Of a stretch of DNA of 64,000 bases, positions 3,001 through 60,754 are shown piece after piece. The notes beneath the pieces are model-generated. The model did not search any database. It was given only the letters and a program-made list of their open reading frames with translations, and was not told the DNA's origin. This DNA is from a virus. Each line of letters starts with the position of its first letter. Positions within the stretch are counted from its first letter, which is position 1. The position numbers were made by a program, and so were the translations under genes. The DNA lies in the IMG/VR virus record IMGVR_UViG_3300014911_000001, positions 32,001 through 96,000 of that record. One strand, written 5' to 3'.

Positions 3001-4361
3001 TTCCAGTTCATACCGCCAGCCCATAACACCACCAGCTATGATCCTTAACGACGGTAATACAGATTCATCAATTAGGTATTCAATTACCTCCTTACCAAAG
3101 TTAACATCCTCTATTTCAGGTGGGTAGAAGACAATACATTCCGAGTAGGAAGAAAAAGGACTTTCCTTCATTTCCACATCTATAGAATGGGGTCGGATTT
3201 CCTCTCCCTTGGATGTAGTAACTGATTCTATAATGAAGCACCTCTTTTCTTTATTTATAGGAATCATAATATTCATTCACCCTCCTTTGTATTTTGTTGA
3301 AGCATTCTCTTTACATCGCCCAGTGTCAAGTTTTCAGAGATCCAGCGCACCCTCTTTCCTTTATTTATTAAATGAATCATTTCGGTTTTGTCAAGTAGAA
3401 GAAGCCGCGGCTTCTTCCCCTTCTCATACAAAATAGCCCAGCGCATGCCTTTGCGAAAAAACATTAGCGTCTCTACCTCCTAAATAGTCTTGCTATTGAT
3501 AAAGCACGACTAACCTTTCTTACTGTACTTGGCATATAGTTATAGCGTCCGATATTCGTCAAACCTATGTTAATAAGCACCGCACCGAAAAATATCAATA
3601 AGTAATCGAGAGGTTTTATTTTCATCGAATTATTACTACTTTGCCTGACTTTATAATAAGGCTTATACCTTCTTAATTCTCCCATTTCTCCTCCTTTTTT
3701 TATAGTTGTATCAAGAGTATTAATAAGCCACTCCCTTCAAACTGACATATAACTTCCTATAAATAATTGTATATCATCAGGTAAATTTTCGATCGCATTC
3801 CACCGTATATCGGCCGCGCTACCACTTTCAGGCACATAAACAATGTAGTTGTTATCAACCCATATTTCTGGCAAGATTTCCTTACCATATGTGAAGTCGG
3901 TTGCAAGTCGTTCAACGGCTTCAGGGATTTCACCATCATCGAGATCCTTTGTTAGCTGAGTCTTAACTTCATACATCACAAGGGCAATAAGATCTGAAAA
4001 ATCGTTCATTGTGCACCTCCTATGATATCAATCTCTTTGATCATATCCTTTTTAATTCTCATATAACCTCTTGTTGGTTCTCCATTAATACGACCATTTT
4101 CAACAATTGCATATGTCAATTTTCGTTCCGGATGTGAATCATATGGCTCAATAACATAATCTTCAAACTCGCAACATGCATTTTCCTCAATGGTCTGGAT
4201 GAGATCATTTGCATCTACTTCACATTCCTTAGTATAATATTCAATGTCTTCATCATCGGTTTCCATTATGGCATATCTAGCTTCCTCTATTACCCATTCA
4301 ATCTTATCTGTCTCGATTATTGCACCATTATTTAACATGATTCTAATCATAATTACCTCCT

Positions 4362-4706
4362 TTACCTTTTTAATGATTTAAATTCATTAGGATCTGGCTT
4401 CTCAAATGTTATCGTCCATCCTTTTCGTGGTTTAATATTAGGCCAGCGCTTCCTATCAAGAACATGGATCCTCTTATGCACGAAATCAATAAATGCTATC
4501 CAGTTTCTCCTGTAACCAAGATCTTCAAACAACCATACGATATCCTTCGACTGAACTACACCAGCCCGCACAAGTGAAGCCCATATTGATCTTGTAAAAG
4601 GATTCTGCCGCGCAACAATCATTCTGCCATTCCTGACGGAGAGCTTCTTTGTATCGGTCCTAACCTCCTTTATGGCCTTTCTTATCCACTCCGTTAATGA
4701 TAACAT
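4362..4706 (-). CDS. Hypothetical protein, paralog of 35727-36095
   Basis: Shared MLSLT..., QNxxTxSxW, IxWxF, RRxWIA, V(L/M)DR, KGW/NGW pattern. Confidence 0.75.
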   Translation of the reverse strand: MLSLTEWIRKAIKEVRTDTKKLSVRNGRMIVARQNPFTRSIWASLVRAGVVQSKDIVWLFEDLGYRRNWIAFIDFVHKRIHVLDRKRWPNIKPRKGWTITFEKPDPNEFKSLKR

Positions 4707-5331
4707 CTTAAACCTCCTTTAGATTAAGCTCTCCCTCTGATTTAACTATGATTATATGATCAGGAGGGTCCAGCCTCTTTAATTGCTTTTTACTCTTTCT
4801 ATAAACAGACAGAGCCTTTGCCTTGGCTTCATTCCCATCCTTTGCTTCTACAGGAATCTCATAAGCATTCCTTACCTCAATTACATACACTATATGCTTT
4901 GACATTTGTTAACCTCACATGTTCCGTAGTGCTCTACAAACAGATATAACAATACCTCTTTCCACATCAACCTTATCAATAGGATTGCGTTTTGCTACTC
5001 CTATAGCCGATGCATTTCGACCTCGCCTCTTAAGCCGCGCCACAGTAAAGTTACCTTGAATGTTGATCTCGCAGCTGCTATAATTACTTAGTTTCTTAAG
5101 CAGGCGGCTCCTCTTATGCTGTTTTCTTACCCTCTCTTGGATAAGTCTCTTGACATCATCGACTGAAAGGATTACTCTTGTTACCTTCATAATCCCTCCT
5201 TTCTCTTTTGTTTTTTGTTCATTAAATTGACTATTTATACCTATTTATCCTCTCTTACCATCTTTCATCACAATATGACAACCTTTTGCTAACTTCATCA
5301 AAGAAAGTAAAGCATCCATTAAATTCTATTT

Positions 5332-5646
5332 TCATGTCATTGTAACAAGTGTGTATTTAGCTTCATAGGGACAAAGAAATGTACTTGGAAGTGGAATGAG
5401 AATTCGCTTGATATCTATCACTTTGGTATCATTCCAACCCTGCATATCACCCCATTTCTCTGTACTACTGTCCTCAATAATTCTGATTTTGGTTTTCTCA
5501 CTGTGAAGCAATTCCATCAATTTATTCCAACATGGAGCGCGCAATTCCGGATACTTGAATCCCATTATTAACTCATGCAGGCTAAAAGCAATAAATTCAT
5601 TATCAACATTAATAAAGAATTTCAATTCATATGGATTAATGTACAT
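5332..5646 (-). CDS. Hypothetical protein, tandem paralog of 5688-5870
   Basis: Both begin MYIxP and share FIxFSxxELIxG...PExR...WNxLxELLH. Confidence 0.75.
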   Translation of the reverse strand: MYINPYELKFFINVDNEFIAFSLHELIMGFKYPELRAPCWNKLMELLHSEKTKIRIIEDSSTEKWGDMQGWNDTKVIDIKRILIPLPSTFLCPYEAKYTLVTMT

Positions 5647-6224
5647 TGTTATACCTCCGTTTCAGATTTCCATAACTATTATACCCATCAACAAGAATAA
5701 ATCAACTTAATTTCTGTGTTATCATTATGCAATAATTCTATTAATTCATTCCAATAATCTGGACGTGATTCTGGGTCTTCATATCCTTGTATTAATTCTT
5801 TAAAGCTAAAACCGATAAAACCTGTATTAGTAGCAACAAGAAACACCATGTCATCAGGTTTGATATACATTACTACCTCCCGTATTATTGTTTAACGCTC
5901 ACTAATTTCTTACAATCTTTTGGTAGCATTATGATTAGGGGATATTTGAAGCCCGCGCCTCTTACTGTACCCCTCAACACTTTGCATTCATATGAATTAT
6001 CAGACATGATTATGGAACACACCATGAGCTCGGTACCCTTTTTCAGCTCTATGAATCCTGAAGCGGAACCACCAATATCAAATTTTAATTTATCTTTTAA
6101 CACAAGATGGGTACCTATATCGATAGGCGCCGGCTTCTTCCTACTAGCCTTCTTTACTGTTTCTACTATATAAGTTGTTCTTTTCTTTGCTTTTGCCTTC
6201 TTTGGACGCCTCATTTAACCTCCT

Positions 6225-6563
6225 CTATTGTCTATGTTTATTATCTTCTGCCCGTTCGTCTTTCTTGGCCTCCTCACATGCAATATGGTATGTATAACTC
6301 ACCATGTGCTCCCACAAGTCGTGCCACATATCACTAAGAAGCCGCGCTGCTATATGCCTAAGGAACATATCTGTTTCCTTATCTGTTAGCTCTCTATCAA
6401 GAAGACTATTGCTATTTAATTCATCCTTACCGATGGCAAGAAGATTAACAACATGACCGCCGCGCTTCAATATAGCACATTCATACTTATTACCATTAAC
6501 ATCTTCAAGTTCAAATTTCGTACCACTCCTCCATTTTATTTTGACAACATTCCATCCATTCAT
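6225..6563 (-). CDS. Hypothetical protein, tandem paralog of 6569-6913
   Basis: Shared WxxVKIK...F...CxI(L/I)KRxG pattern. Confidence 0.7.
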   Translation of the reverse strand: MNGWNVVKIKWRSGTKFELEDVNGNKYECAILKRGGHVVNLLAIGKDELNSNSLLDRELTDKETDMFLRHIAARLLSDMWHDLWEHMVSYTYHIACEEAKKDERAEDNKHRQ

Positions 6564-7582
6564 TTTGGTTACCTCGGTAGTTCAATATTATATTTTTCTG
6601 CAGCATCTTCAATGCCTGCCCATAACATTTCCTCTAAATTTCTATATATTGGATTTAATATGTCATCCAATATATCACCAACATATTCCAATACATAATC
6701 AGTAAAATCATCACTAATATCCATCCCTACTGTCTCTCTTACATACTCCTTATTAACAAGTGTTAAACCTATAGTCCTGCCATTACGTTTGATTATTTGA
6801 CACAGACACTCCTCACCATCGATGAATTCTATCCTGAATACCGTATCAGAAACTTTTTTTATTTTTACTATCTTCCACTCATCCATTTTAATCCTCCACC
6901 TTCTCAGGTTCACCTATGGCAATATGAGCGAAGAGCCAATCAGTTGCCTGCTCTATGGCTAACATTTCGTCGGCGGCTTCAACCTCTAAATATCCCTTTA
7001 TTTCAATATCATCTATTGCATTTGTAGCTATACCCCAAGGAATCTTAAACTTCATGACTCACCTCCTTAAATTTTGATTCAAGCCATTTGAGACATTTCT
7101 GAGAATGAAAATAATCCCATACATAATTAGGAATTCTATCAAATTGAGTTGTTGGTTCTAAACTTATAATCTTATGCTCTGGGTTGTACCATATAAGAAA
7201 GATTTCACGATTAAGAAGTTTCCATATGCGTTTATCAATTTTTCTATTGCTGCTTTCTAACTTATCATAAAACAATCCATTAACAAGGTAATAGTAATCA
7301 TTCCCATCTTTTACCTTCATCATTATACTTCTCCTCCTTTTTATCCAGCTCTTCAATACAAAAAACTGCCGCCGAACCAAGTACGAAAATAAGCGTTGCT
7401 ATATTGTGAAGCTTCTGCATGTCAACTTTATTTTTATCTTTTTTATCACGAATATAATTATCCAAGGCAACAAATAGTGCTTCCATCGGTTCAACATTAT
7501 TGCGGCAGGCTTCCTTAAATAGATCAACAGAAGGATTATCTAAATAACGCTCCCAATCTCTCCATGACATAATATCCTCCTT

Positions 7583-8074
7583 TTAAACAGTTACGAATTG
7601 TGAAACCAACTCTTTTAATGATCCCTCTTCTATTATATATCCATTATAATTAGCAACTATGACATACCAATTCATAGGATCATTCTGATCATGTGATCGA
7701 TATACGAAATATAAATACTCTACATCCCCATGTAAATACGGTTCCAACTTCTCAAGTGGTATATACTTTGAACCATCACCATCAGAAATCGGTGAATCAA
7801 TATCGAAATCAAAAACAACACCCGAGAATCCATATCCTAATGTTAATCCCGATCCTTTTTCCTTCTGTCTTTTGCACCAGTAAACCCAATTTGCTGACAT
7901 GTACTCAGCATCAAATCGCATACCCCAATATTTATCCTCTCTTAGCCATTTATTGAATCGAACAAGCCGCGCCAGTATACCAGCATCTGTATCAGGATAT
8001 CCATCTGAATGCACATATGTTATATAGGCACCATAATCATCAACAAAGATCACATGACATCTCGTGGACATCAT
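7583..8074 (-). CDS. Phage hypothetical protein (MSTR...YVHSDGYP type); start trimmed to 8074
   Basis: GGAGG directly upstream of ATG at 8074; the upstream extension of the ORF runs through GC-rich hairpins. Confidence 0.7.
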   Translation of the reverse strand: MMSTRCHVIFVDDYGAYITYVHSDGYPDTDAGILARLVRFNKWLREDKYWGMRFDAEYMSANWVYWCKRQKEKGSGLTLGYGFSGVVFDFDIDSPISDGDGSKYIPLEKLEPYLHGDVEYLYFVYRSHDQNDPMNWYVIVANYNGYIIEEGSLKELVSQFVTV

Positions 8075-8224
8075 TACCTCCTTTTTCTGATGGGGCAGCC
8101 CCGAAGGACTGCCCCGTTGAAAGGAGCCATCATGAGGACGGACACTTTCACCTCCTTCGAAGCCTGCTGAGGTGACCCACGAAGGGCCACCCCAGCACGA
8201 GAAAGGAGCTGCCATGAGGAGTGC

Positions 8225-8770
8225 TTAGAAGCCTACATCATCATCCATATCCTTCGGGAAGGGAGGCTCTTCATCAAATTCCTCTTCGTCCTCCTCACCT
8301 ACAGGAAGCTCATCCTCCTCTTCATCCTCGATATCCTCATCTGCACTCGCGCTTGTACGCCCATCATACGGTCTCTCACGGATAAGATCCCTTATCGTCT
8401 CATCGAGATACAAATAGAGTAGATAGAGTTCGTGTGAATCAAGAGGGAAGGCCAGCTTCCTTGCTTTCTTCTTCCCTGTTTTCTTGCTAATCGTCAGGAA
8501 GAAGGTATCCTTATAGAGACCGAAGGATAGTACGCTACTTCCCTTACCGCCAGCAAGAGATGCATCGTGTATGAAGCGGACCTTCTTACCTTTTCGGACG
8601 CCAAGAGCCAGCTGGGCGGCTTCCGTTAACCCAAGCTTCATCGTTAATCCGTCATCCATGTTGAAGCCGTCGCCCTCCTCATCAGCAGGATACAGAGAGA
8701 GGTAAATACTGCGGTCCTCCACTCTAGCATTGGCTCTGAGATACACAGACTTTTTGAAAAGACTCAACAT
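8225..8770 (-). CDS. Single-stranded DNA-binding protein, Whirly/PC4-like fold with acidic tail
   Basis: By-eye match to the Whirly pattern (LSLFK..., KLGLTEAAQL, RFIHD, FFLTIS, FPLDSHELYLL); long D/E tail ending DDDVGF. Confidence 0.6.
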   Translation of the reverse strand: MLSLFKKSVYLRANARVEDRSIYLSLYPADEEGDGFNMDDGLTMKLGLTEAAQLALGVRKGKKVRFIHDASLAGGKGSSVLSFGLYKDTFFLTISKKTGKKKARKLAFPLDSHELYLLYLYLDETIRDLIRERPYDGRTSASADEDIEDEEEDELPVGEEDEEEFDEEPPFPKDMDDDVGF

Positions 8771-8788
8771 AATAACACCTCCTTTAGG

Positions 8789-9199
8789 TTAATTATTATT
8801 CTTTTGATTCAAAAATGCAAGTGCTTTTTCCTCTGTTTCTGCTATTGTTCTTCCACAATATGGACATACCCATTTATTCAATCCGCCTGTGGAAGTGATA
8901 TCATATGGCCAATCATCATATGTTCCATCTGGATTAAGTTTCCAGCTTACAAAACACTTTTGGACATTCTCTAAATATCTTATTTCCTTATTGCAATGTG
9001 GGCATATTGGATAATTCTCCTCTTTGTAAGCGCGAAGTTCAATACGGCAATTGTATCCTTGCCTTTTCAATTCTGCTATGATATCTTCATATTCCCTTAG
9101 CCTTTCTATTACTTCATCTTTATCAACCTCATGAATGTTTGCCAACAATCGATTAACCATATTCATCAACTTGGTATCTGACATATCCTTAAGATTCAT
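8789..9199 (-). CDS. Zn-ribbon protein
   Basis: CPHC...CPYC; RBS present. Confidence 0.65.
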   Translation of the reverse strand: MNLKDMSDTKLMNMVNRLLANIHEVDKDEVIERLREYEDIIAELKRQGYNCRIELRAYKEENYPICPHCNKEIRYLENVQKCFVSWKLNPDGTYDDWPYDITSTGGLNKWVCPYCGRTIAETEEKALAFLNQKNNN

Positions 9200-9211
9200 G
9201 TTTGACCTCCT

Positions 9212-9796
9212 TTATTCAATATAAATTGTAACACGAGGCCGCGGCCTCATTATCTTCTCTATAACCTTCTTCGTAAGTTCTTTACCAACAACATATTCAA
9301 AATATTTACGATCGCTAAACAGTTTACTTTCCGGTGGAATGGTACCATCAGTAAGAGCTTGATATGCATCAAGTTTAGGACTAAGATCCATACCACAACC
9401 ACCTAGTGCAAGGAAAAACCGACTGTTATACTCAAACGGTATGAGATCGCATTCTATAGCCGCATTTACATCCTCTCTATGTGGTTCATAATATACTATC
9501 CAATATGAAAGATCCTCTTTTAATTGCTCAATTGCCTGCCATTTCCTTTCATCCTCATCCTCATACTCATACTTTTCCTTATACAATTCTATAATTTCAT
9601 CAGGAAATTCCACTTTCATTATATAATCATCATCATAATCGCTTAATCGAACTTCGTCATAAAAGGACTCAAACGGCCGCGTGCGCACTCTTTCGATCAC
9701 AGCCCTTATATGTGTATTATCATTAGCCACAAGTCTATTAAACATATATGTTATAGCATCATCATGTTCGATTGTTTCTATTAGTTTCTCATTCAT
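9212..9796 (-). CDS. Phage hypothetical protein
   Basis: 194 aa ORF with GGAGG; LALGGCGMDLS motif. Confidence 0.7.
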   Translation of the reverse strand: MNEKLIETIEHDDAITYMFNRLVANDNTHIRAVIERVRTRPFESFYDEVRLSDYDDDYIMKVEFPDEIIELYKEKYEYEDEDERKWQAIEQLKEDLSYWIVYYEPHREDVNAAIECDLIPFEYNSRFFLALGGCGMDLSPKLDAYQALTDGTIPPESKLFSDRKYFEYVVGKELTKKVIEKIMRPRPRVTIYIE

Positions 9797-11480
9797 TAGT
9801 TACCTCCTGTAGTTACCTCCTGTGAGCTGACTTTTATAAGAAGCCCGCCGTTCTCCTGCAACTCCTCTGGATCGAATTCTTCAACCTCCATGGTATGACC
9901 GCAAGCAAATGTTATCTTCCTCACATTCTTAACATAGTCGTCGGGATCCGTCATATAGAGAAAAACAGCACCGTCTTCAATAAGCGCATGCACAATGACC
10001 TGATTCTTATCATTGTAACACTTTATTTCATTACTTATTTCTCCGCATTCTGGACAGAGCCATCCCTTGTACATGGAGTAACCTCCTTTCTCGTAAATGG
10101 GTTTATGAACCTCTCAAACTTCTCTCTTATAAGAAGCTCGGCGCATCTTTTACATAAAGGGTAATTTGCTTTGAGGATTTCCATGAGGGCATATGAAGGC
10201 GAGGCTTCCTTTATCTCCTTTCCGCATATCACACAACGCATAATAACCTCCTTTTTACCGTATTATTATTTCACCAGAATCAATCGCGGATAATGTCTCC
10301 TCCATTTCATAAAGCTTTGTTTCTAAGAACTTTCTGCTCTCTTCACTTAGTTTATCACCATACTCCTCAAGGATCCTACTCAACATTCTCCTCCATTCCT
10401 TTAAATCCTCATAGTCACTTCTATGTATTACCATTTATTTCCTCCTTTTCAAAACACAACTCAAGATGTGACCTATAACCTCTACTCTCCAGTTCATCCA
10501 TTATAAGTGAGAATTCATCCCACTCATCATCAGAGATATTGGCATCACGAACCATAATAGCATAATGCAATTCCTTCGCCCTCTTTATGAGATCCTCATC
10601 TGTTGCTCTTATGATACTTGCAATCTTCATTCTTCTTACCTCCTTTACCTTTAATAATATTTCTTATTTTTGATTAATCAATAATTTTTTGTCCATTAAA
10701 TTGACTTTTGTAGTTGTCGTCATCTGACACAGCTAATGGTAAAACGCTTATGTGGCCTTTGTTAGCCTCCTTACATTTATCTAGGAATGAGAGAAATGAA
10801 TATTCATCCATTATGAGGTGGAAGCCGGCGGCCTCATCACTTGCTCGTACTGTTCTGAAAAAGACAAATAACTCACCATTATCAACACTAAAGTTAATTC
10901 CTATCATTGTTGCTCTCCTTTTCAAGTAACTTAGCAATCAATCTCTTTATATTCTCTATTTCTCTTTGCAGATCATATACCTGCTTCGTTACTATGCTGA
11001 GGCATATTTCTAGATCTTTCAGTCTGCTCATATCGTTTCCTAGTTTTGATTTTATAGACCATACCAAACTTGTAATTCTCTGGATCGATCCATCCATGAA
11101 AGTGTTTTGGTAGAACTCTACGACCCTTGCGTTTGTAGAATGCTACCTTCTTTCTCTGCTCCTTCATCACCAAACCTCCTTCACAGGGAAAGAGGTGAGA
11201 CCCGGTTACTTGAAAGGGGGTTGTTTTATGGATTATGGACCGCGCTAGGTATGCTACGCGGAGGAAGGCCGGGCCTCACCATACCTCTTATGTCTCCCTC
11301 AATAATCTTTCCTTTACATAGACCTCGAGAAGCGATCTGAATACCTTACTACTACAGAAATGCTTATCCATTACAAACACATGATCTCCTTCGGTCCTTA
11401 CTCGCTTGTCCCATGTGTGGCCGGCTTCAAGAATACTAAACACATCATCATCAGAGAGGCGGACCTCACTACCATTATCA

Positions 11481-12680: not shown

Positions 12681-12698
12681 CAGAAACCTCCTTTCTCC

Positions 12699-13445
12699 CT
12701 ATATATCCTTTTGCTCCCAAGATCTCCTTATGTCAATACAATTATTAATAAAATATTCCTCAAACTCATCTTTTGTTTCATCAACGAGCGTAAACATGTC
12801 ATTAATATCCTTTGCTTTCAGCGTATCCATAAGAATTTTATACCGGTGCCGCGCCTTCTTCTCATCACCCTGCTTAATAAGGTTTATAACAAACTTCTTT
12901 ACCTCCTCTACTAGCTCCTTATTCCTTTTCACGGCCTCATATAAATCCTTAACCTTTATCGTAAACTCAGTATCATTGTCATCTATCTGTACTACATCAT
13001 TAAGCTCACCTTTATACAGAAGCTCCATAAATACTATTTCGGCAACCATTTCCTTATATGCATTATCAATAATCATCTGCCTCTTTTTCCTGCACAACAC
13101 ATCACCATAGAATCTACCTATATCGCGAGCCGGCATGTAAATGATCTTATTTGATACAAGAAATGGTGCTATCGCCAATGCATTGAACTGATGGAGATTC
13201 ATCACCTCAACAGCTACGAATGGTTCATTGCTGAACAAACCACGGCAGTAGCCATTCCAATGCAACCTGATGAACTTATAATAGGTTATCTTTGCGTCTC
13301 TATTTTCCTCTATATCTCTATCGATATCGATGTCATCCTCCAGCAGGTATTCGTCATTATGGATTATAAGAATATACTTTGTCACATCCTTATCTGTCAT
13401 GCTTTCAACACCTTTTATGAGCTTCTCCTTATCAAATGTAAACAT
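12699..13445 (-). CDS. Hypothetical protein (248 aa)
   Basis: Long ORF, GGAGG RBS, TAATG coupling to upstream ORF. Confidence 0.7.
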   Translation of the reverse strand: MFTFDKEKLIKGVESMTDKDVTKYILIIHNDEYLLEDDIDIDRDIEENRDAKITYYKFIRLHWNGYCRGLFSNEPFVAVEVMNLHQFNALAIAPFLVSNKIIYMPARDIGRFYGDVLCRKKRQMIIDNAYKEMVAEIVFMELLYKGELNDVVQIDDNDTEFTIKVKDLYEAVKRNKELVEEVKKFVINLIKQGDEKKARHRYKILMDTLKAKDINDMFTLVDETKDEFEEYFINNCIDIRRSWEQKDI

Positions 13446-19820: not shown

Positions 19821-19825
19821 ATTGA

Positions 19826-50753: not shown

Positions 50754-50781
50754 TTGAAAATTCCCGGAAATACGGTATAAT
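50754..50781 (+). promoter_or_regulatory. Promoter TTGAAA-16-TATAAT
   Basis: Read directly, upstream of glycosyltransferase. Confidence 0.65.
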
Positions 50782-50804
50782 CAGACCAAAAGAAAGGAGT
50801 ATCT

Positions 50805-52709
50805 ATGATTATAAAAGTCTCACGCAGACAAGACACAAAAACTGTTTCACAAAAGGGCTATCCTATTATAGCGGTAATATCCGGTAATACACACTTTTAC
50901 TCCGGTGGGCATTATTATATGTATGAAATAGCTGTTGCATTATCTGAACTAGGAGCCGAGGTGCATTTCATTACGAATGTGCGTCCAAGACATTTTGAAA
51001 AGGATTTCAAAGATTATGATCTCAGTAAAATTCATTGGCATGTTGACAGAAACTATAAAGCCGACCTACCTCCCTTAGATGCTGTTATTGGTTCTCCTAT
51101 CCATACAGCCCTCATAGCCGTTGATCTTGCGGGCCTACATTCATGCCCTTCAATTATTGTTGTCTATGAAACACCTAACTGGTACGCGGAATATGAGGAG
51201 GATGAACATAAATATATGCCACGAAAACCACCATTTGAGATGTTCAAGCAAGCCTTAATAGAGTGTGATCGTATTATAGCAATAAGCCATGAAGGCGCTA
51301 AATACATCCCTCAATGGGATAGCAGGATTCCACCAGATAAAATTAGTGTTATAAGACCTGCTATAAATCATAAATGTGCTAATAGATATAAAAATAAATC
51401 CGCAAGAGAACGTAGTGTTACATACATAGGTAGATTAGTATTTAACAAGCAATTTTGGGAGCTCTATGATGTTATAATGAATGATCCTGAACCATACGTA
51501 TTTCATGTTGTTACATCAACGATATCAGAAGCCGAGCGCAGAGCACACATGGGAAATGAAAAACATCCTGTCCAGTGGCATCTTAAGGTTGGTGATGATA
51601 AAAAATTCGAGATCCTATCGAAAACATCAGCCTTAATTTTACCAACCAAATTTGAGGGTTACGGTATGCCTCCACAGGAATCATTATATCTGAATACACA
51701 TACAATTGTTATGGATCTACCGGTTTTCCATAATGGGCACGCAATAAAGGATGATGCGCATTTTGTTAAGGACATGAAAGAAATTCCAAGTGTAGTACAC
51801 AAGGTACTTGGTAAGACATGTACACCTAAGGGGCACATACCGACGATGGAAGATATGAAAAGAGAGCTTCTGCAGGTTAAGGAGATACCATTTAAGTGGC
51901 GTTCCGAAGACGATATCCTCATAAGCTTTTCATGCTGCGTCTTTAACAACGCTAAACATATAAGAGAATGCATTGAAGCAATTTATGATCACGCGTATGA
52001 GATAATCATTGTTGAAGGCGCCACCGATTGGTGGGCTAACTACTTTAATAGTCCTACAGGTATTAGCACCGATGGAACACATGAAATAATTATGGACCTT
52101 GTAAAAAATGATAGCAAGGGGATTATAAAATATTATGGTCCCCTGCGTTTCCCTCATAAGGTACAGATGAGGCGTTATGCGGTAAATAAAATTGATAAAG
52201 AAGCTGTGAGAAGCGGGCGCCTCGTCTATTGGATCGTAGATGCTGATGAAATCTATACTGATGAAAGCATTAAAGCGATGAAGCGCGCCATCCTAACGCA
52301 CCAAAAAGGAATTGTTTTTCAACCAACATACAGACATCACTGGATTGATCCACGGTATGTCATAGAAGGCGGGCCATGGAGTGCACCTCATACAAGAGTC
52401 GTCGTGTGGAATAGGAAATACGGCTATCATAAGCGTGATCAATATTATGTACAGAGACATAATGAACCACTAGATGAACAAGGCATAGGGCTTAATATAA
52501 TGAGGCCAAAGTATTATGTAAGCCGCGGCTTAGGTGTATTGGTTCCCGACTGCATTGTTGACCACTATGCATATGATTACAACTTAGAGGCCAAAATGCA
52601 ATTCTATAAAGAACGCGGCGACAATGCATATAAATTAATGGTTGCTGTTATGCAATGGAAGCCTGGCAAACCATTACCAAAAGGTATTACGATCAAGCGC
52701 ATAAATTAA
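50805..52709 (+). CDS. Two-domain glycosyltransferase (GT4/GT-B plus GT2/GT-A)
   Basis: SGG, IGRL, FEGYGMPPQES; then FNNA, STDGT, VDADE. Confidence 0.85.
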   Translation: MIIKVSRRQDTKTVSQKGYPIIAVISGNTHFYSGGHYYMYEIAVALSELGAEVHFITNVRPRHFEKDFKDYDLSKIHWHVDRNYKADLPPLDAVIGSPIHTALIAVDLAGLHSCPSIIVVYETPNWYAEYEEDEHKYMPRKPPFEMFKQALIECDRIIAISHEGAKYIPQWDSRIPPDKISVIRPAINHKCANRYKNKSARERSVTYIGRLVFNKQFWELYDVIMNDPEPYVFHVVTSTISEAERRAHMGNEKHPVQWHLKVGDDKKFEILSKTSALILPTKFEGYGMPPQESLYLNTHTIVMDLPVFHNGHAIKDDAHFVKDMKEIPSVVHKVLGKTCTPKGHIPTMEDMKRELLQVKEIPFKWRSEDDILISFSCCVFNNAKHIRECIEAIYDHAYEIIIVEGATDWWANYFNSPTGISTDGTHEIIMDLVKNDSKGIIKYYGPLRFPHKVQMRRYAVNKIDKEAVRSGRLVYWIVDADEIYTDESIKAMKRAILTHQKGIVFQPTYRHHWIDPRYVIEGGPWSAPHTRVVVWNRKYGYHKRDQYYVQRHNEPLDEQGIGLNIMRPKYYVSRGLGVLVPDCIVDHYAYDYNLEAKMQFYKERGDNAYKLMVAVMQWKPGKPLPKGITIKRIN

Positions 52710-53104
52710 ACATGCCGTTCAAAATGGGGTACATCCTTGAATGTCTTAAAGTTGCCACCCCATCTATTCTTCTTATTAAGACTCTCCCAGTACTCACCAA
52801 ACGGTTTAATATCATTATAGTCCCATGTTAAAACATAATATCTCCCATCCACAATAACAATCGTCTGCTCATACTTATATTTTTCACCCTCCTGTATCGG
52901 CTTAAAGAAATTAAGGTCAATAGCGAGCCGCTTCAAATGATATGAGTTCATTGTCTTACTGCGTCCTGTTTCCACATATATCCGTTGTGTCTCAGGAGAG
53001 CGCCAGAGCTCTCCCCCTGTAACAATCCAGCCTTTTTCTTCGACATACTTAATCAGTTTCACTACATCCTTCAGAAATTCCCACTGTTCCTTCACTAATG
53101 ACAT
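52706..53104 (-). CDS. M15-family peptidase, probable endolysin
   Basis: SYHLKRLAIDL, WGGNF, DVPHFE. Confidence 0.88.
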   Translation of the reverse strand: MSLVKEQWEFLKDVVKLIKYVEEKGWIVTGGELWRSPETQRIYVETGRSKTMNSYHLKRLAIDLNFFKPIQEGEKYKYEQTIVIVDGRYYVLTWDYNDIKPFGEYWESLNKKNRWGGNFKTFKDVPHFERHV

Positions 53105-53391
53105 CTTCCTGAACCTCCTCTTCTTTTGGTTTCTCCTTTGACCCTTGGAAAATAAGACGATGCCCTTCGTCTTTGCTTATTAATGCGATAGTGCCTCCAA
53201 AGTCAATCTTACCAATATAATTTTCATCTTCATATTCAATATATACCCATCCAGTATGCTGCCCACTGGTGTCTACAATTTTACCATCCTCTTCGATATA
53301 GAATGCTGGATCACCACGTTGTGTAATAAGACACGCTTTATAGTTACCATAATCATAATAAAATTTGTGGAAGAATAACATATGCACCTCC

Positions 53392-54105
53392 TTATGTTAT
53401 AATTCCTTGTTTCACCTTTGACAAATATTCTAATAAATATCGTTCTTTTTCCCCATCTCTATTTTCTTTTGTTATTATGGGCCAGCCGCGCTTCTTACAG
53501 CTATTATTAATCCATGAGCGACGGTGGAAAATAGTAAGCCCGCGGCTTCTCATCTCATTAATAGCCTGCCTACTAAATCCACCACTGTATTTATATCCAA
53601 ACAACTCAACGAACATTCTCCGGAATTCATCATAGACATATCGTGCAATGATACTTGCCGCCGCTATTGAATAATGCGTCTCATCACCACCATAAATGCC
53701 AAATTGGGGAACACTTAATCCATCAATATCATAATAATCCACGAATACAACCGCATTACCATTATCCTTAGTGATTCGATCTACCATATTCTTAATAACA
53801 TCTAATTCGTGCTTACGATAATTGCCACCACCATCTACAATATGGAAATCACAGTAATCAACATAAACAGGAAACCTTTCCATAAGTGATAATGCCACCT
53901 TCTTGCGTTCCTTTACCGTAAGTACCTTGCAATCAGCAACAGGTATTAATGGATACTTAATAGGCGGAACAATTTTAACTGCACCCACAATAATAGGTTG
54001 CAGAGAAGAAAAGACATTTACCTCATCAAATCCAATGATAGTCATACCTTCATCAAGGTATTGTTTCTCATCAGGATCAAAATCTGTTAACCAATGCTTT
54101 TCCAT
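53392..54105 (-). CDS. rnhB: Ribonuclease HII-like protein
   Basis: IGFDEV, DCK, FVD, GD...SIAAASIIAR, HRRSW. Confidence 0.8.
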   Translation of the reverse strand: MEKHWLTDFDPDEKQYLDEGMTIIGFDEVNVFSSLQPIIVGAVKIVPPIKYPLIPVADCKVLTVKERKKVALSLMERFPVYVDYCDFHIVDGGGNYRKHELDVIKNMVDRITKDNGNAVVFVDYYDIDGLSVPQFGIYGGDETHYSIAAASIIARYVYDEFRRMFVELFGYKYSGGFSRQAINEMRSRGLTIFHRRSWINNSCKKRGWPIITKENRDGEKERYLLEYLSKVKQGIIT

Positions 54106-54572
54106 TATTCCTCATAGACATTTTGTGTTGCCCAATACCCTAAACAAATAGCATCCGCTATATTATGGTTATCTATCTCCTGTCCTGCCAGCTCAGATGC
54201 AAGCCTCATAGAATAACGCTTGCGATCAATACGTTTCGTCTGTGACGAACATTGCAATATATTTGTCTGCCATGTCTGGGGTTGCACAACCACAGGAATC
54301 CATCCATTACACTCAAAGATTGTTGCAATAGAAGCCCGCACCTCAACCAATCTTTCAAAAGTTAAAACATTCCTCTTACTTGCCCGGGGATGAAGCCACT
54401 GACCCTCTATAACAAGCACCCGCGTACCTTTATCATATGTTGTGGATAGCTTGTGCATTTTATCCAGAAATTCTTCATCTCTATCAATCAAACCCCAGCT
54501 TTTCAAATGCCCATTCTCCCATATGCTATAACCAATGCGTTTCGTATCGGGATCAATAGCTATAATAATCAT
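54105..54572 (-). CDS. RuvC-like Holliday junction resolvase
   Basis: IAIDPD, VIEGQ, PxTWQ, ADAICLG. Confidence 0.8.
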   Translation of the reverse strand: MIIIAIDPDTKRIGYSIWENGHLKSWGLIDRDEEFLDKMHKLSTTYDKGTRVLVIEGQWLHPRASKRNVLTFERLVEVRASIATIFECNGWIPVVVQPQTWQTNILQCSSQTKRIDRKRYSMRLASELAGQEIDNHNIADAICLGYWATQNVYEE

Positions 54573-55504
54573 TTCTTAAGCCTGCTTTCTATGAATTCCT
54601 TTAGGTTATCTTTATTCTGGTAAATTTCTAATGGGTAAATACCATTCTCAAGCAACCGATCAATCGAATATTTCTTACCATCAATCTTTATGGAATTACC
54701 TTCCATAGGTATACCAAAATCTGAAGCCGGCGCCAAATCAGACCACATATCAATCAAACCAATATTCGGCTCAACCAACAAAATGTGATTCTTGCCCTCA
54801 ATGATACTTGATGTTTTAGTTTTGACAATCGTAATCTTCACTGTGTCAAACTTGTATTTACCACTTATACGGTGGAAAAATAGTTTCAAATGATAAAGAT
54901 GCTTTAACAAGTAAGGACCCGGCTCCCTATAACTCATATAAGCTTTGGTATATCTAGTAACCTGTCCACCTATGAGATCCCTTATCTGGTTTATAATAAT
55001 CGCAAGAATTTCCTTTTCACCTATTGCTGGGGCCCATACTTTAAGCTCGCGGCTTAGTAAGCGCGCCAGCTCTGATACCTTCTGCTCCTGCGGCTTTGCT
55101 CTCTTCTCAAATTCAGTACTCATAGCAACAGCACTATCAAAGACAAACCCAACAATATCATCCAGATGTTTGGCATAAACATCACGTATATCTTCAAATA
55201 TCTCCTCAGCTGTTGAACCACGTATAACAATCATTTCATCAAGCTTGCAACCTTGGATCTCAGCCCATCTCCCATCAAACATGCGCTCTGCATCAACATA
55301 GACAGTAAGCCCGCCCTTCTTCTGTTCCTGCAGAAGACCTACTAAAGCAAGAGCCAATGTTGTCTTACCAGTAGAAGGACCACCCCAAAATCCTATGAAC
55401 CTGCCTAACGGTATGCCATATAACGCTTTCGCCATAAAGGGGAAACGGGCTGATAAATCTAAGTACTTAGTACTTGATAGTTCAGTCGCTTTTATTATTG
55501 CCAT
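54569..55504 (-). CDS. RecA/UvsX-like recombinase
   Basis: GGPSTGKTT, YVDAE, FDSA, INQIR. Confidence 0.88.
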   Translation of the reverse strand: MAIIKATELSSTKYLDLSARFPFMAKALYGIPLGRFIGFWGGPSTGKTTLALALVGLLQEQKKGGLTVYVDAERMFDGRWAEIQGCKLDEMIVIRGSTAEEIFEDIRDVYAKHLDDIVGFVFDSAVAMSTEFEKRAKPQEQKVSELARLLSRELKVWAPAIGEKEILAIIINQIRDLIGGQVTRYTKAYMSYREPGPYLLKHLYHLKLFFHRISGKYKFDTVKITIVKTKTSSIIEGKNHILLVEPNIGLIDMWSDLAPASDFGIPMEGNSIKIDGKKYSIDRLLENGIYPLEIYQNKDNLKEFIESRLKK

Positions 55505-55519
55505 CTTAAACCCCCTTTA

Positions 55520-57895
55520 TCAATCACACTTCCCACCATACCCACACTTTGGACATGGGTTATTACAATCAAACGCATATTCAACACCTCTAGTTATAAT
55601 TTTATAACCACACATGGGGCATACATTTATTATAGCATCATCGGGTACCTCACCATCTGGTAGAGCACCATTATACATATTTGACGCTTCCTGCACAGCC
55701 TTCTTGCGTTGCTCATATTCCTCCTCAGGTGTAATACCACGCAGGAAATATTTTAGTGCTAATCCCCAGAATCCCACAGGAGATGCAATCTTGTGTCCTT
55801 TATACCATGTCATACCATCAGCAGATTTTATGCTTGCAAACTCATTAATAATACGATCAACGACACGATGATATAATTCTTCATCTCCAAGGGCATAAAT
55901 CTGCTTAAGGAATATCGATGTGATCACATCTAGAGCAATAATAAAATCCGAATGTGGTATATCCTTACTACCCAAGAAGATTTCCAGTGGTTTACCCTCA
56001 ACACCCGCTACGATAAGATAATAGTTTTGGTCCCTATAAGGGAACTTATAAGCCTTTGCATCAAGTGTATCAGGCCTCTTCCAATCAGATAAAAAGAGGA
56101 ACTTGCTCTTCTTCTTACCACTCCTTATTACAGCCTGCCGGCTTCCTTCTCTGAACACAGTTATACCCTTTACCCCATTTTTCCAAGCATCAATAAAGAA
56201 GCGCGACAGATCATCCGTTGTCCATTGAGCTGGTATCGTATATGTATTGCTAATAGCATTATCGATATGTTTCTGTATTGCCGCATGGATGGCTAATTTA
56301 TCATAAGGATCAACATCATGCGCTGTAACCATATATGGTGCATTCACATCATAACCATCAGTATTTTCTACCCATTCATATATAGGTTGCTTAAATTTCA
56401 TCATCTTATTGAAGCTCTCGCTCCACCGTTCGATCTCAAAATAAAAAATTGGCTCAAATGCTGCATTAACCCCTGTCAATAATGATATCGACCCCGTCGG
56501 CGGCACAGTTAACAACGCAACATTCCTTATACCATGTTCAGCTACCTGCATCATAAAGTCCTTATTAAAATGCTTTTTGATAAATAGCGCCTGCTCAACA
56601 TAATCCTCGTATGAACCATCCTTTTTAAACTGTTCAACAGCAGGCGCAGGGCCTAACTGCTGGGCGAGCTTAACAGATTCATCATATGCTATATTACATA
56701 TAAATTCAGCTATGCGCTCGGCTTCCCTAACAGACTTAAGGGTACCATATTTAATGCGCTTAATAATAAAATAATCAGCCAGTCCCATAAACCCTATACC
56801 AACCCGCCTCTCAAATTGAGCCTGCTCCTTTACCTTATCTATAGGATAATATGCCCTGTCAATAATAGCATCACCTAATCTAACGGCAAATCGCACCGTT
56901 TGTTCCAACTTTTTCCAATCCATACGGCGGGTAGACAGATCCACATGAGCAACAAGATTGACGCTTAAGAGGTTACAAACGGAATAAGCCGGCAGCATCT
57001 GTTCCCCACACGGATTGCTTGTAGCAATCTTTGCATAGCCTGATGAATTTGATGTGCGTTCGACATTGTCTATAAAAATAAGCCCCGGCTCCGCTGACTC
57101 CCATGCAGTCCTTACAATCGTATCCCATAACTTCTTCGCCCTTATACTACGCTGGACCTTCACAACATCATTTTTGAATGATAGAGTGAAGTCATCATCA
57201 GAAATCATAGCATCCATAAACTCATCTGTTACCTTAACAGATATGTTAGCATAGCGTACCTGAAGCCGGCTTAATATATACCTCACAAAATCGGCCTCCT
57301 CATCATCAACATTCAGAAGAGTAAAATAACTCTCCATCGCATTGTTTAAATCACACTTCATTTTTACGAATCGCTCGATATCAGGATGTGTTATGTCAAG
57401 ACTTATCAACAGAGCTCCACGACGCCCGCTCTGACCAACCAATCCCGTAACAGCAGAATATAACTCAGCCCAGCTCCATGCACCCGTAGAGACCTTCGCA
57501 GATCCTGTATGAACCTTTGCACCCTCAGGACGTAGCGTTGATATATCTATACCACATCCACCACCTGATTTATAAACGATTGCCAATTCCTTCGCCGTAT
57601 CAAAAATGCCCTCCATGCTATCCTCTGGTGATGCTATGACATAACAGTTAAATGGCGTTATACGTTGTTCAACACTCCTTCCAGCCGCATACAAAACACG
57701 ACCGCCAGGAACAAGCCGCCAGCTTAAGTTACCATCATCATCAAAAAAGATGTTATCTGTCTCTATAGGATATGGTTTAAGGAAATAATCATATACACGC
57801 TGAAAGATTGACTCGATTGGTTCATCAGGTTCTGCCTGATATTTTTTGGCTATCGTATCTCTTATGGTCTTATACTCATCAGATATTGGAATCAT
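55520..57895 (-). CDS. nrdJ: Class II (B12-dependent) ribonucleotide reductase
   Basis: NCY, GGGCG, RRGA, NPCGEQ, CNL, PPTG, FREGSR, C-terminal Cys pairs; no beta subunit adjacent. Confidence 0.9.
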   Translation of the reverse strand: MIPISDEYKTIRDTIAKKYQAEPDEPIESIFQRVYDYFLKPYPIETDNIFFDDDGNLSWRLVPGGRVLYAAGRSVEQRITPFNCYVIASPEDSMEGIFDTAKELAIVYKSGGGCGIDISTLRPEGAKVHTGSAKVSTGAWSWAELYSAVTGLVGQSGRRGALLISLDITHPDIERFVKMKCDLNNAMESYFTLLNVDDEEADFVRYILSRLQVRYANISVKVTDEFMDAMISDDDFTLSFKNDVVKVQRSIRAKKLWDTIVRTAWESAEPGLIFIDNVERTSNSSGYAKIATSNPCGEQMLPAYSVCNLLSVNLVAHVDLSTRRMDWKKLEQTVRFAVRLGDAIIDRAYYPIDKVKEQAQFERRVGIGFMGLADYFIIKRIKYGTLKSVREAERIAEFICNIAYDESVKLAQQLGPAPAVEQFKKDGSYEDYVEQALFIKKHFNKDFMMQVAEHGIRNVALLTVPPTGSISLLTGVNAAFEPIFYFEIERWSESFNKMMKFKQPIYEWVENTDGYDVNAPYMVTAHDVDPYDKLAIHAAIQKHIDNAISNTYTIPAQWTTDDLSRFFIDAWKNGVKGITVFREGSRQAVIRSGKKKSKFLFLSDWKRPDTLDAKAYKFPYRDQNYYLIVAGVEGKPLEIFLGSKDIPHSDFIIALDVITSIFLKQIYALGDEELYHRVVDRIINEFASIKSADGMTWYKGHKIASPVGFWGLALKYFLRGITPEEEYEQRKKAVQEASNMYNGALPDGEVPDDAIINVCPMCGYKIITRGVEYAFDCNNPCPKCGYGGKCD

Positions 57896-58611
57896 GTGCC
57901 ACTCCTTTCGCTACATGCCTCCCTGCTTCTTAACAATAATGACACACGCTTTATAAATGCATAAAATAACCCGAGATATACTAGATAGTCTCTAACAGCA
58001 TCCTCATAGGAATCGTTTTCGACTAATAGTTCACCCTTTTTATTAAATGTTATCATCCTGCTGACCTTATCAGCCATGCGCCATATGAAGCCGAGGCCTA
58101 TATCATAAAAATCCTCCCATTCATTGTATTCCCGGGGAAGCCGCGGCTTCATCACAGCAACAAACATAAAATTAGCCAACGCATCACCACCCAACCCCGT
58201 TGCATAATCATGGTTCTTTTTTGTATGGAGCTCCTTTATCGATGCGATAATATTATCTAATGGCTGGCGCTTCACAGATGTATAGTAGTTAAGCAATTTA
58301 GCGCCTTCTATAATGATAATTGACAACATTAAATCCAACCCTTGGCGGCGGACCTCATCACAGTTGCACTTAGGATGCGCAATGATCTTTACTAAATTAC
58401 GCAGCTGCGCTAGTGATCTTACTCTATCTGATATATCCAACTTATCAAGGTGTATGCCTCTCTTCGATATGAGATCTAAATATTCCAAAAACAGACGGTC
58501 ACCTCTAAACCCATCCTTCTCAATAATAAAATCATCGCGATAAAAATAACACAAGGTAGGGTCAATAACAACATCGGATGGACTTGAACCCATATCCACC
58601 TCCTTTGTCAT
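57892..58611 (-). CDS. DUF1599-like (nucleotide-modification-associated) domain protein
   Basis: KNHDY...NF...RMADKVSR...DSYEDAVRDYLVY. Confidence 0.65.
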   Translation of the reverse strand: MTKEVDMGSSPSDVVIDPTLCYFYRDDFIIEKDGFRGDRLFLEYLDLISKRGIHLDKLDISDRVRSLAQLRNLVKIIAHPKCNCDEVRRQGLDLMLSIIIIEGAKLLNYYTSVKRQPLDNIIASIKELHTKKNHDYATGLGGDALANFMFVAVMKPRLPREYNEWEDFYDIGLGFIWRMADKVSRMITFNKKGELLVENDSYEDAVRDYLVYLGLFYAFIKRVSLLLRSREACSERSGT

Positions 58612-59062
58612 ACATTATAATTATTTATTATATGTTTTAATATAAGTGATGGCGTATGGCATTGCGGAAGATTTTGGCAGGTAGTCCCATCAAGGACCTC
58701 ATAACCCTGTTGAGCAAACCGCGTCTTGTTATCCTTCCTATCTGCCACTTCTTGCTCCTCATCAGATTCATCACAAATGTATCGATGCGCTTCGATGCTG
58801 TCAAGTGATTTTTTAATATAGGTATCGGTTGATCTATCTTCCTTACCATCTCAGGCGCCTTGGATAGAGCCGCAAGACGTGTCCCAACCTGCGATATCTC
58901 CCACTTTAATCCTGCATATCGTGCCGGCATGCGCAACAGGGATGGTTTGATACGTAATGGTAGGTCTACATAACGAGGAGACCATAACCTTTTGGTATAA
59001 CGATTCGTATCCTTTATATTACGACCCAGTTCTAATAACCTGTGATTTAACTTAAACATCTC

Positions 59063-60754
59063 TCACTGTGTGTCGGCCCCGAACCATCTCCGCTGTCGGA
59101 CATCCTCGGGGTCCCCACCTCCACACGGAGGTGAGTTTATCCGCACGGGGCCTGAAACTTTTTTTGTTCCCCTCACTGTCCCACCATGAAGCCCCGCCAA
59201 GGGCTCATTGTCTATGTTAATTATACCACCTATCGATTTTACATATCCATGCTTTTGCAACAGATACAGAAGAGATGTGTGTATATAGACCAAACGACTT
59301 GTGTTCCTACATTCAAGTCTACCGAACTCCTTATAAGTTCCGATAGGTAATCCTATCTTCTCAGCTACGTTATATAGGTACCTTACAGCATCGACGAGTA
59401 ATTTGTACTTGAACGTATAACGGTTGCGGTCCCTAAGGACTCTTATCTTACCGTCAGGTATGTCGATATCCGTCAGTTCCAACGGTTGATTACGCATGTA
59501 CCGTATGTATAGATCAATGATGTGATCAATGTCATTTTTTATAAGTATGTTATCTAATAGATATTGATGTGATGATAGGATCTTATGTAAGCATCTTGCT
59601 ATTATATGTAGCAACGGTTGCCTTCGTAGGGATTTCATGTTGGTAAGTCGTCTGGGTGTTATGTGCCGTATCTGTAGGTTATGTATGGCCTGTGCTATAG
59701 GTTTGTAGTGATGAGCAAGCTGATGTATGTGTCGTTGGCGTATGTACTTTAATGACTGTAGTTTCTTATCGAACGTAGCGTTTAGTGACCATGTTGATGC
59801 ATATGAGTAGTCAGGTGATGTTGATGGTCGTATGTTATAGACTGATATGTATGCTTCATTAGATGGTGATGCATCCTTATACTTACTATGTATAATGTGC
59901 TTTTTGTAATATTTACGTATCTTAATAGCATGATTAGTCTGTTCCGTGGTTCGCTTGTAGGATCTGATGTGACGGATGGTTAGAGGTAGTGCATACCACT
60001 CGGACTGAGGTAGACTGTAGACCTTAATATCTTTATGAGGAATGTATCTATATGCAGATGGTTGATATGCGATCTGTGGGTTGATGGGATCGTTGCGATA
60101 GTAGGTACCTTTATTAGTATGTTTTTTCTTTATGAAATGATATGTTGGTATAAGGCGGAGAAATTTATGTTTTTTAAGGTATGTTATGTGCCGCCTTATG
60201 GTTGGTATGGATAGCTGGAGAAGTGAGGATATGAAATCCTGTGACTTGGGCATGTGCTTGGGGTCGGCGGCAAGGAATGCAAGAAGTGTTATTATCTGTG
60301 TCTGTATATGTGCTGGAAGCGAGCTTATGTAGTTATGTATTGACTCAGGCATGTAGACAAGCTTGAGAGGCCAGCCCTCTGGTGCGAGAAGCCGCGGGTT
60401 TATGTCCTTTAGGTCCTTGAGAGAAAATGAAAATGATGCGTATGATGTATTAGTATCTTTATCATATTTTATCTTGAAGCCGATGGTTCTTATTATGTTG
60501 TAAACCTGTGTGTAGTGCTTTTTTAAGGCCGGCAGGTTCTGCCTGACATATGATTTGAAATCATCGTAGGGGATAAGCCCGCCGTTGTGCCATATGTAAA
60601 GAAGTGCGTTGAGTGTTTCGTAGAGAAGCCGCGGCTTCAAAGGACTACGAGGTGCATAATAATTCGATAGAGCATCACCTACATACCTGAGAACGCCGCC
60701 TAATGTGCTCACTATAATACAGTCATGTATGTCATCAGTGTAATGCTTCATCAA
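59063..60754 (-). CDS. Large basic protein with HTH-like segment, possible replication initiator
   Basis: SQDFISSLLQLSIPTIRRHITYL; K/H/Y-rich; own promoter. Confidence 0.4.
   Translation of the reverse strand: MMKHYTDDIHDCIIVSTLGGVLRYVGDALSNYYAPRSPLKPRLLYETLNALLYIWHNGGLIPYDDFKSYVRQNLPALKKHYTQVYNIIRTIGFKIKYDKDTNTSYASFSFSLKDLKDINPRLLAPEGWPLKLVYMPESIHNYISSLPAHIQTQIITLLAFLAADPKHMPKSQDFISSLLQLSIPTIRRHITYLKKHKFLRLIPTYHFIKKKHTNKGTYYRNDPINPQIAYQPSAYRYIPHKDIKVYSLPQSEWYALPLTIRHIRSYKRTTEQTNHAIKIRKYYKKHIIHSKYKDASPSNEAYISVYNIRPSTSPDYSYASTWSLNATFDKKLQSLKYIRQRHIHQLAHHYKPIAQAIHNLQIRHITPRRLTNMKSLRRQPLLHIIARCLHKILSSHQYLLDNILIKNDIDHIIDLYIRYMRNQPLELTDIDIPDGKIRVLRDRNRYTFKYKLLVDAVRYLYNVAEKIGLPIGTYKEFGRLECRNTSRLVYIHTSLLYLLQKHGYVKSIGGIINIDNEPLAGLHGGTVRGTKKVSGPVRINSPPCGGGDPEDVRQRRWFGADTQ

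Follow-up and report, generated by a model that had tools for sequence, protein, structure and literature searches.

Highly iterated palindrome 1 (HIP1, GCGATCGC) of cyanobacteria is an exact 8-bp palindrome of cellular genomes that is linked to methyltransferases. Chi (GCTGGTGG in Escherichia coli; AGCGG or GAAGCGG for AddAB-type enzymes), the FtsK-orienting polar sequences (KOPS) and the DNA uptake and uptake signal sequences (DUS/USS) are fixed words of host genomes and are mostly polarised with respect to replication. GC-rich islands in AT-rich DNA, at times inside genes, are also formed by the Rickettsia palindromic elements (RPE), the GC clusters of yeast mitochondria and the repetitive extragenic palindromes (REP), all of which are insertions of 30–150 nt with conserved flanks. 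Primases start at short sites of their own, namely 5′-(G/T)GGTC for T7 gp4, 5′-GCT or 5′-GTT for T4 gp61, d(CTA), d(TTA) or d(CTG) for bacterial DnaG and d(CCC) for the Aquifex enzyme. Here we describe a repeated DNA word in a phage genome, the 175,796-bp IMG/VR virus record IMGVR_UViG_3300014911_000001 (G+C content 40.2%), and in a 64,000-nt stretch of it (bases 32001–96000, hereafter the window; coordinates refer to the window unless the genome is named). What is repeated is a one-sided word, 5′-(RRG)-S5–9 ending in GC, followed by TT and then by C or A, where R is a purine and S is G or C.

When compared with the systems above, the phage word resembles HIP1 in being short, GC-rich and repeated in coding sequence in all frames above codon-aware nulls, HIP1 at a density of about one per kb, and the function of HIP1 is likewise not agreed. 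It differs in being one-sided, in having a GC run that is degenerate and varies in length, and in belonging to a genome in which we found no match to methylases of the C5, N4/N6 or Dam type (PF00145, PF01555 and PF02086) or to Vsr (PF03852). Since the word is not palindromic and the phage has no such methylase, it is not HIP1, and the HIP1-like modification site considered by an initial annotation of the window was left without a phage enzyme. With Chi, KOPS and DUS/USS the word shares the character of a frequent, selected, GC-rich oligomer within genes, but it is degenerate, phage-borne and unpolarised after normalisation; being neither fixed nor polarised, it is not Chi. Unlike RPE, the yeast GC clusters and REP, it is 10–13 nt long, arises by substitution and has unrelated flanks. 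In short, it is a selected, highly iterated DNA word like HIP1, Chi, USS/DUS and KOPS that fails the testable defining features of each. What is new is a fixed end joined to a GC run in which only pairing strength counts, in a phage, and at a density sufficient to re-write proteins.

Anatomy of the repeated word

The initial annotation had drawn attention to a palindrome, GAAGC-SSSS-GCTTC, written into coding sequence. All seven exact copies of the 14-mer GAAGCCGCGGCTTC that it reported were located (nine are present in the whole genome), each in a separate open reading frame (ORF) and encoding KPRL in 5 of the 7 cases and SRGF in the other 2 (Table 1). None occurred in 100 dinucleotide-preserving shuffles of the window, and codon-preserving shuffles of its ORFs gave 0.11 copies, confirming that the 14-mer is far above chance. 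Two other variants of the same pattern were found. Half-site variants were indeed numerous on both strands of the window, with GAAGCCG at 44 (+) and 34 (−) and GAAGCCC at 24 (+) and 18 (−), and many GC runs did belong to the motif, 153 of the 328 G/C-only runs of at least 6 nt in the window ending in GC|TT on one strand.

The palindrome itself did not hold up as the repeated unit. We defined a strict word, SSSGGCTT, and a relaxed one, S4-GCTT, with the reversed, non-complemented word as a control. The strict word was present 336 times in the genome; its copies in the window were divided between the plus (55) and minus (84) strands, whereas the reversed control gave 6 copies there (2 on plus and 4 on minus). 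Relaxed copies numbered about 510 in the 176-kb genome, in which the word, with both strands taken together, recurs about once per 500 bp. An order-2 Markov model predicted 11.7 occurrences of GAAGCCG/CGGCTTC on both strands compared to 169 observed, and 3.3 occurrences of GCGGCTTC compared to 98 observed. When the sites were listed, the majority were one-sided, such as ggcgcGGGCTTca and tgAAGCCGgcgcc.

A position profile of 437 sites, aligned at SGGCTT, revealed a word that ends abruptly on its 3′ side and is fuzzy on its 5′ side. GGCTT is invariant and is followed by C in 59% and by A in 29% of sites, together 88%, and composition is back at background immediately 3′ of TT(C/A), which speaks against a palindromic unit. 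Positions −5 to 0 are only G or C with neither favoured, a purine-rich fade-out follows further 5′, and the flanks regain background composition by about 8 nt from the word. Among G/C runs terminating in GGC|TT, length ranges from 5 to 11 nt with a mode of 7–8 nt, and such an end on one strand was found for about 27% of G/C runs of at least 5 nt and for roughly half of those of at least 7 nt. All eight SSS triplets were found ahead of GGCTT, mixed runs being favoured over homopolymers (CGC 81, GCG 72, GCC 65 and GGC 49 versus GGG 8 and CCC 12), and a minor core, CGCTT, accounted for 106 copies. These data point to pairing strength, rather than base identity, as what matters at the S positions. 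An extended repeat element was ruled out, the flanks of the copies being unrelated to each other and of background composition.

Head-to-head pairs of the form AAGCC-S(0–7)-GGCTT numbered 27, compared to about 1 expected from site density, and only 1 tail-to-tail pair was present. The palindrome is two head-to-head copies of the word on one common GC run, and these 27 overlaps are few among the 336 strict copies. Their spacer is variable (0–7 nt) and tracks the run-length distribution of single sites; the favoured spacer, GC, yields CCGCGG and an 8-nt run without homopolymers, in agreement with the single-site preferences. Palindromic GC runs were favoured only slightly (164 versus 133 ± 8).

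The excess of head-to-head pairs would be in keeping with a duplex-DNA binding site for a protein of the phage that acts in nucleoid formation, packaging, segregation or self-marking. A signal that is genome-wide, roughly even in density and indifferent to gene, frame and strand would also fit such a role, and because the majority of the phage genes cannot be assigned to any family, a reader of unknown type could well be among them. However, degenerate S positions and a variable run are unusual for base-specific recognition of duplex DNA, a half-site spacer that follows the run lengths of single sites speaks against a dimer of fixed geometry, and the copies are spaced in a Poisson-like manner (see below). 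We consider this explanation unlikely. None of the readers proposed by the initial annotation was demonstrated, and the variable run and the Poisson-like spacing do not favour those among them that would be duplex-binding proteins of fixed geometry.

Table 1. Copies of the word and its palindromic form in the window, with genes and regions referred to in the text
Feature	Position	Strand	Context	Peptide or remark
One-sided word 5′-S(5–9, ending GC)-TT-(C/A), field over window	1..64000	both		139 strict SSSGGCTT; 170 relaxed S4-GCTT
Exact GAAGCCGCGGCTTC, two opposite-strand copies on common run GCCGCGGC	3401..3414		small minus-strand ORF 3273–3464	KPRL
Exact GAAGCCGCGGCTTC	21879..21892		far 5′ end of ORF 21505–21894 (−)	KPRL; may fall just upstream of true start
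GC-richer island	24000..42000			45–50% G+C
Ligase/LigD-type 3′-phosphoesterase gene	27372..29354	−		
Variant GAAGCGGCGGCTTC	29018..29031		within ligase/LigD-phosphoesterase gene	KPPL
Exact GAAGCCGCGGCTTC	30220..30233		ORF 29866–30303 (−)	SRGF
RNase HI gene	34089..34760	−		
830-aa gene	36458..38950	−		no Pfam or PHROG match
IS200/605-type transposase gene	42808..44052	−		PHROG 506, E = 8e-99
Variant GAAGCCCGCGCTTC, CGCTT form on one side	42846..42859		adjoins 3′ end of IS200/605-type transposase gene	
Exact GAAGCCGCGGCTTC	46973..46986		PhoH-like gene 46138–47070 (+)	SRGF
Exact GAAGCCGCGGCTTC	49932..49945		ORF 49831–50538 (−)	KPRL
RNase HII gene	53392..54105	−		
Class II ribonucleotide reductase gene	55520..57895	−		6 word copies
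Exact GAAGCCGCGGCTTC	58137..58150		ORF 57892–58611 (−)	KPRL
Exact GAAGCCGCGGCTTC	60625..60638		ORF 59063–60754 (−)	KPRL

Selection on the DNA word

We wanted to know how far the abundance of the word could be attributed to the proteins that it lies in. On a crude map of 211 ORFs covering 93% of the genome, 211 strict copies were in sense orientation, 98 were antisense and 27 lay outside ORFs; all three frames were used, and no intergenic enrichment was seen on this map. When synonymous codons were shuffled within each gene, so that protein sequence and codon usage were kept, the genome retained 18.5 ± 4.1 sense and 18.1 ± 3.6 antisense copies, far below the numbers observed. The same was found for the ORFs of the window, where 300 shuffles gave 8.5 ± 3.0 sense copies compared to 74 observed and 10.0 ± 2.6 antisense copies compared to 47 observed. 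The fixed core GGCTTC was also enriched four-fold, with 169 occurrences versus 44 in synonymous shuffles. Enrichment therefore persisted, in the window and in the genome, under the kind of codon- and amino-acid-preserving null by which the initial annotation had proposed to judge it.

The word has changed protein sequence too. Peptides compatible with it were more frequent than in amino-acid shuffles, with 186 versus 101 for [AGPR]-G-[FL], 318 versus 216 for x-[GR]-L and 54 versus 34 for K-P-[AGPR]. When the class II ribonucleotide reductase was aligned to Thermotoga NrdJ (PDB 1xje), word-encoded PGL fell on PGL, LPAY on LSDY and GSR on GSL, placing the copies at conserved or tolerant residues, and no gaps were found at word sites. 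Between relatives, the differences at word positions were clustered substitutions of 1–5 bases, with no indels at the copies. The gap-free alignment and the substitutions between relatives together indicated that copies arise by substitution and not by insertion, and a mobile mini-insert was ruled out on these grounds. The substitutions that write the word are synonymous and amino-acid-changing alike. In addition, at least five sense copies were present in the gene of the IS200/605-type transposase, whose nearest genome match (Runella) is only 28% identical, so even the gene of a mobile element has been re-written.

Conservation of the word was then measured at third codon positions inside the 8-mer and in flanks lying 6–45 nt from it. 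Between relatives of 82% identity, 14% of these positions differed inside the 8-mer compared to 44% in the flanks (p = 7e-6), and at 94% identity the values were 1.2% and 9.6% (p = 0.004), indicating that the word evolves about three times slower than adjacent synonymous sites. Of the copies compared between this genome and its 82% relative, 20 were common to both and 6 and 7, respectively, were confined to a single genome, whereas neutral retention was estimated at about 18%. From the low third-position divergence and the retention above this estimate, we concluded that purifying selection, or a drive of equivalent effect, maintains the word while allowing some turnover. Collectively, the synonymous shuffles and the three-fold slower third-position change bear out the view that the signal acts at the DNA level and is not a by-product of protein sequence or codon usage, and we are highly confident that the word is under selection as DNA.

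An equivalent drive might be a functionless footprint of biased repair or conversion, similar to very-short-patch repair or to the methylase-linked origin proposed for HIP1, that restores or generates the word faster than mutation removes it. Such a drive would likewise slow synonymous change and override amino-acid choice, new copies do differ from the corresponding sequence in relatives by the clustered substitutions described above, and a one-sided GC tract of less than 10 nt beside a fixed end may be taken to resemble a very short repair patch. Against this, the methylases and Vsr named above are missing from the phage genome, an observation that concerns phage enzymes only, and the four-fold enrichment of the core itself means that any such process would need to generate this core in addition to the GC tract. 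To our knowledge no repair system has this specificity, which further counts against a repair origin, and we hold it to be improbable.

A candidate primase start site

The phage encodes a T7-gp4-like primase-helicase of 781 aa (genome 15069–17414, minus strand, outside the window) with DNAG_N, Toprim and DnaB_C domains and, at residues 29–58 of its N-terminus, a divergent zinc-ribbon motif (CP-x5-H … C-x2-C). On the basis of sequence, we tentatively suggest that the word may be the start site of this enzyme. Its anatomy is compatible at the sequence level with a primase site, with an invariant TT, C or A next to it and an S run on the 5′ side. Base-specific recognition by a protein fits the fixed GCTT(C/A) end and its abrupt 3′ edge, and a demand for base-pairing strength fits the variable run restricted to G and C; together these two features make up the anatomy of a primase start. 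Known primase sites share with the word a fixed 3–4-nt end, a central T, an uncopied 3′ base and a primer template on the 5′ side, the core GCTT(C/A) includes GCT, CTT and TTA/TTC, and the phage-encoded primase-helicase is of a fitting type. Bacterial DnaG initiates at the central T of its d(CTA), d(TTA) or d(CTG) triplet, the 3′ base being left uncopied (PMC2978363), T7 primase makes pppACCC on 5′-GGGTC (PMC11109968), and Aquifex primase prefers G/C triplets, a preference that its authors read as thermal adaptation (PMC2532735).

Under such a mechanism, the primase-helicase would read the word as a single-stranded template. The invariant CTT or TT(C/A) end would be the triplet at which synthesis initiates, its 3′ base being cryptic, and the G/C run would be copied into an 8–11-nt GC-rich RNA primer, pppA(A)GCC-S(5–8), which could stay annealed in the otherwise 38–40% GC genome of a probably thermophilic phage. 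The IVYWREL fraction of the phage proteins was 0.43, which suggests growth near 68 °C. Sites would be needed on both strands if forks go both ways, as in recombination-dependent replication. The head-to-head excess, with its single tail-to-tail pair, is what independent selection on each strand predicts, the GC run being the costly part. That the phage has re-coded its whole genome, proteins included, to place GC-rich primase start sites about every 500 nt on both strands is a further proposal, and one we regard as doubtful.

An unusual set of enzymes acting at RNA–DNA junctions is encoded on the minus strand (Table 1). It comprises RNase HI, RNase HII and an ATP-dependent ligase that is fused to a LigD-type 3′-phosphoesterase domain, and it suits the removal of stable RNA primers. 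Other genes for replication and repair encode a family-B DNA polymerase, a superfamily 2 (SF2) helicase, a RecA-like protein, PhoH and ThyX, in addition to the class II ribonucleotide reductase and an SbcCD-like exonuclease. Neither topoisomerase IB nor Prim-Pol was found in the phage genome.

A number of observations weigh against a primase start site. The N-terminus of the primase-helicase gave no score with Pfam Zn_ribbon_DnaG. Primers of T7-type gp4 are 4–5 nt long, shorter than the G/C run, and we know of no primase site that is extended into a selected 8–11-nt GC run or that, at a cost to protein sequence, reaches a genome-wide enrichment above ten-fold. The raw 2:1 ratio of sense to antisense copies in the genome would fit a preference for the lagging-strand template, but the word was carried by 0.29 of the amino-acid-compatible positions in sense and by 0.30 in antisense orientation, so the raw bias is due to coding potential. 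No replichore-like strand switch was detected in any region of the genome. With equal normalised orientations and no switch, a strict lagging-strand-template signal was not seen, and in showing no lagging-strand bias the word differs from known primase sites. Its spacing was Poisson-like, with a coefficient of variation of 0.89 compared to 0.99 ± 0.055 overall and a similar result on each strand; long gaps between copies were not avoided on either strand, and the spacing analysis suggested by the initial annotation returned no regular pattern.

Comparison with other phages and other primases is also unfavourable. Thermus phage phiYS40, itself AT-rich and equipped with a DnaG primase, contains no comparable word, indicating that thermophily and AT-richness need not entail it. 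The nearest relatives of the primase-helicase outside the clade are 25–30% identical and lie on contigs without the word, and no primase intermediate between these and the clade, as would be needed to follow co-variation of enzyme and word, exists.

The phiYS40 comparison bears equally on the idea that the copies are physical GC clamps, which would limit melting of AT-rich duplex at high temperature or beside nicks and would need no sequence-specific reader. Sensitivity of the S positions to G/C content only, the thermophilic look of the proteome and a density of G/C runs of at least 5 nt that is 3.5 times that of phiYS40 (7.7 versus 2.2 per kb) would all be in keeping with clamps. Yet clamps leave the invariant GCTT(C/A) end and the sharp 3′ boundary unexplained, the copies are not regularly spaced, and phiYS40 does without such a word; we therefore give this idea little credence.

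The word might also be a Chi-like signal that attenuates a nuclease, with 5′-GAAGC(C/G)-S… read by a host AddAB/RecBCD-type enzyme or by a phage exonuclease, either to shield linear phage DNA or to steer recombination-dependent replication. It is short, GC-rich, very frequent and selected on both strands, and the phage has both a RecA-like protein and an SbcCD-like exonuclease. Furthermore, its minor form GAAGCG-S overlaps the AddAB Chi of Staphylococcus aureus (GAAGCGG) and Bacillus subtilis (AGCGG). Chi, however, is a fixed sequence, whereas here at least five positions take G or C, the run varies from 5 to 11 nt and two cores are in use (336 copies of GGCTT and 106 of CGCTT). Strand polarity was absent once normalised, and homology breakpoints between relatives avoided the word, 0 of 25 being within 25 nt of a copy compared to 13% for random positions. 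A Chi-like role is thus a low-probability explanation, and the same breakpoint count led us to reject the word as a marker of mosaic or recombination junctions.

An element acting in RNA, such as the arm of a stem or a signal for ribosomes or RNase, would account for the raw sense excess, and three intergenic hairpins do have the word in their loops. After normalisation for coding potential the sense bias was gone, however, and antisense copies were themselves enriched 5-fold. The copies were uniform along genes, with no link to gene starts, gene ends or Shine–Dalgarno sequences, and RNA stems between copies were rejected because adjacent opposite copies were no more complementary than distant ones. 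Long inverted repeats seldom included the word, which showed no genome-wide preference for hairpin loops (1.2% versus 0.7%). An RNA-level element is largely refuted by these results, as is a mobile mini-insertion of the type of RPE or yeast mitochondrial GC clusters by the absence of indels both against PDB homologues and between relatives; we consider either very improbable.

The three hairpins lie at 34010–34090 and 38935–39000 on the minus strand, with the word in a 10–11-nt loop. One has a 12-bp stem with loop TAAGCCCGCCG and another a 7-bp stem with loop GCGGGCTTCA; the third has a stem of roughly 16 bp with loop TTCCGGGCTTC, and its 3′ arm lies over the ATG of the 830-aa gene. All three gave folding z-scores of only about −2.

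Relatives and significance

The word was found in all close relatives of this phage at a density of 1.4–2.4 per kb, and their reversed controls were close to zero. These comprise a 147-kb IMG/VR contig of 90–97% identity, two more IMG/VR fragments of 95% identity and four Logan contigs of 82% identity, the last with a third-position identity of 61%. A scan of IMG/VR for the 14-mer returned dense word only in fragments of the same clade, no cultured relatives were identified by megablast or tblastn, and our literature search found neither a published description of the word nor a paper in which the samples are named.

Some further observations were made outside the clade and elsewhere in the genome. 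Two contigs that carry outside relatives of the primase-helicase, L012 (a contig of Logan SRR26089416) and L013, likewise gave no scored zinc ribbon; GTCTTT/TTGTCTTT and GACTTA, words that include the GTC triplet of T7 type, are mildly over-represented in them, though these contigs are too small to judge. An unrelated viral contig of 52% GC (IMGVR_UViG_3300026522_001171, 7335–14260; L127) had 9 copies of SSSGGCTT versus 0 of the reversed control in 6.9 kb, and may represent mild independent enrichment. In the window, the GC-richer island contrasts with 36–41% G+C elsewhere and has a weaker GC skew; it contains the 830-aa gene, the ligase/LigD-phosphoesterase gene and the RNase HI gene. No tRNAs were found in the phage genome.

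Chi, USS/DUS, KOPS and HIP1 are words of cellular genomes, and each of them has brought to light a machine that handles DNA. The phage word is unusual beside them in that it joins a fixed end to a GC run of which only the strength counts, is so dense that hundreds of codons and amino acids have been changed by it, and is limited to one isolated clade, for which it can be used as a sharp fingerprint in metagenomes. If the word stops a nuclease or serves as a self-mark, it would be a new counter-defence device. If it marks priming sites, it would offer direct access to the organisation of lagging-strand synthesis in a thermophilic phage and a testable rule for primer stability. Replication priming would then, for the first time, be seen to shape coding sequence, probably as an adaptation for priming an AT-rich genome at high temperature.

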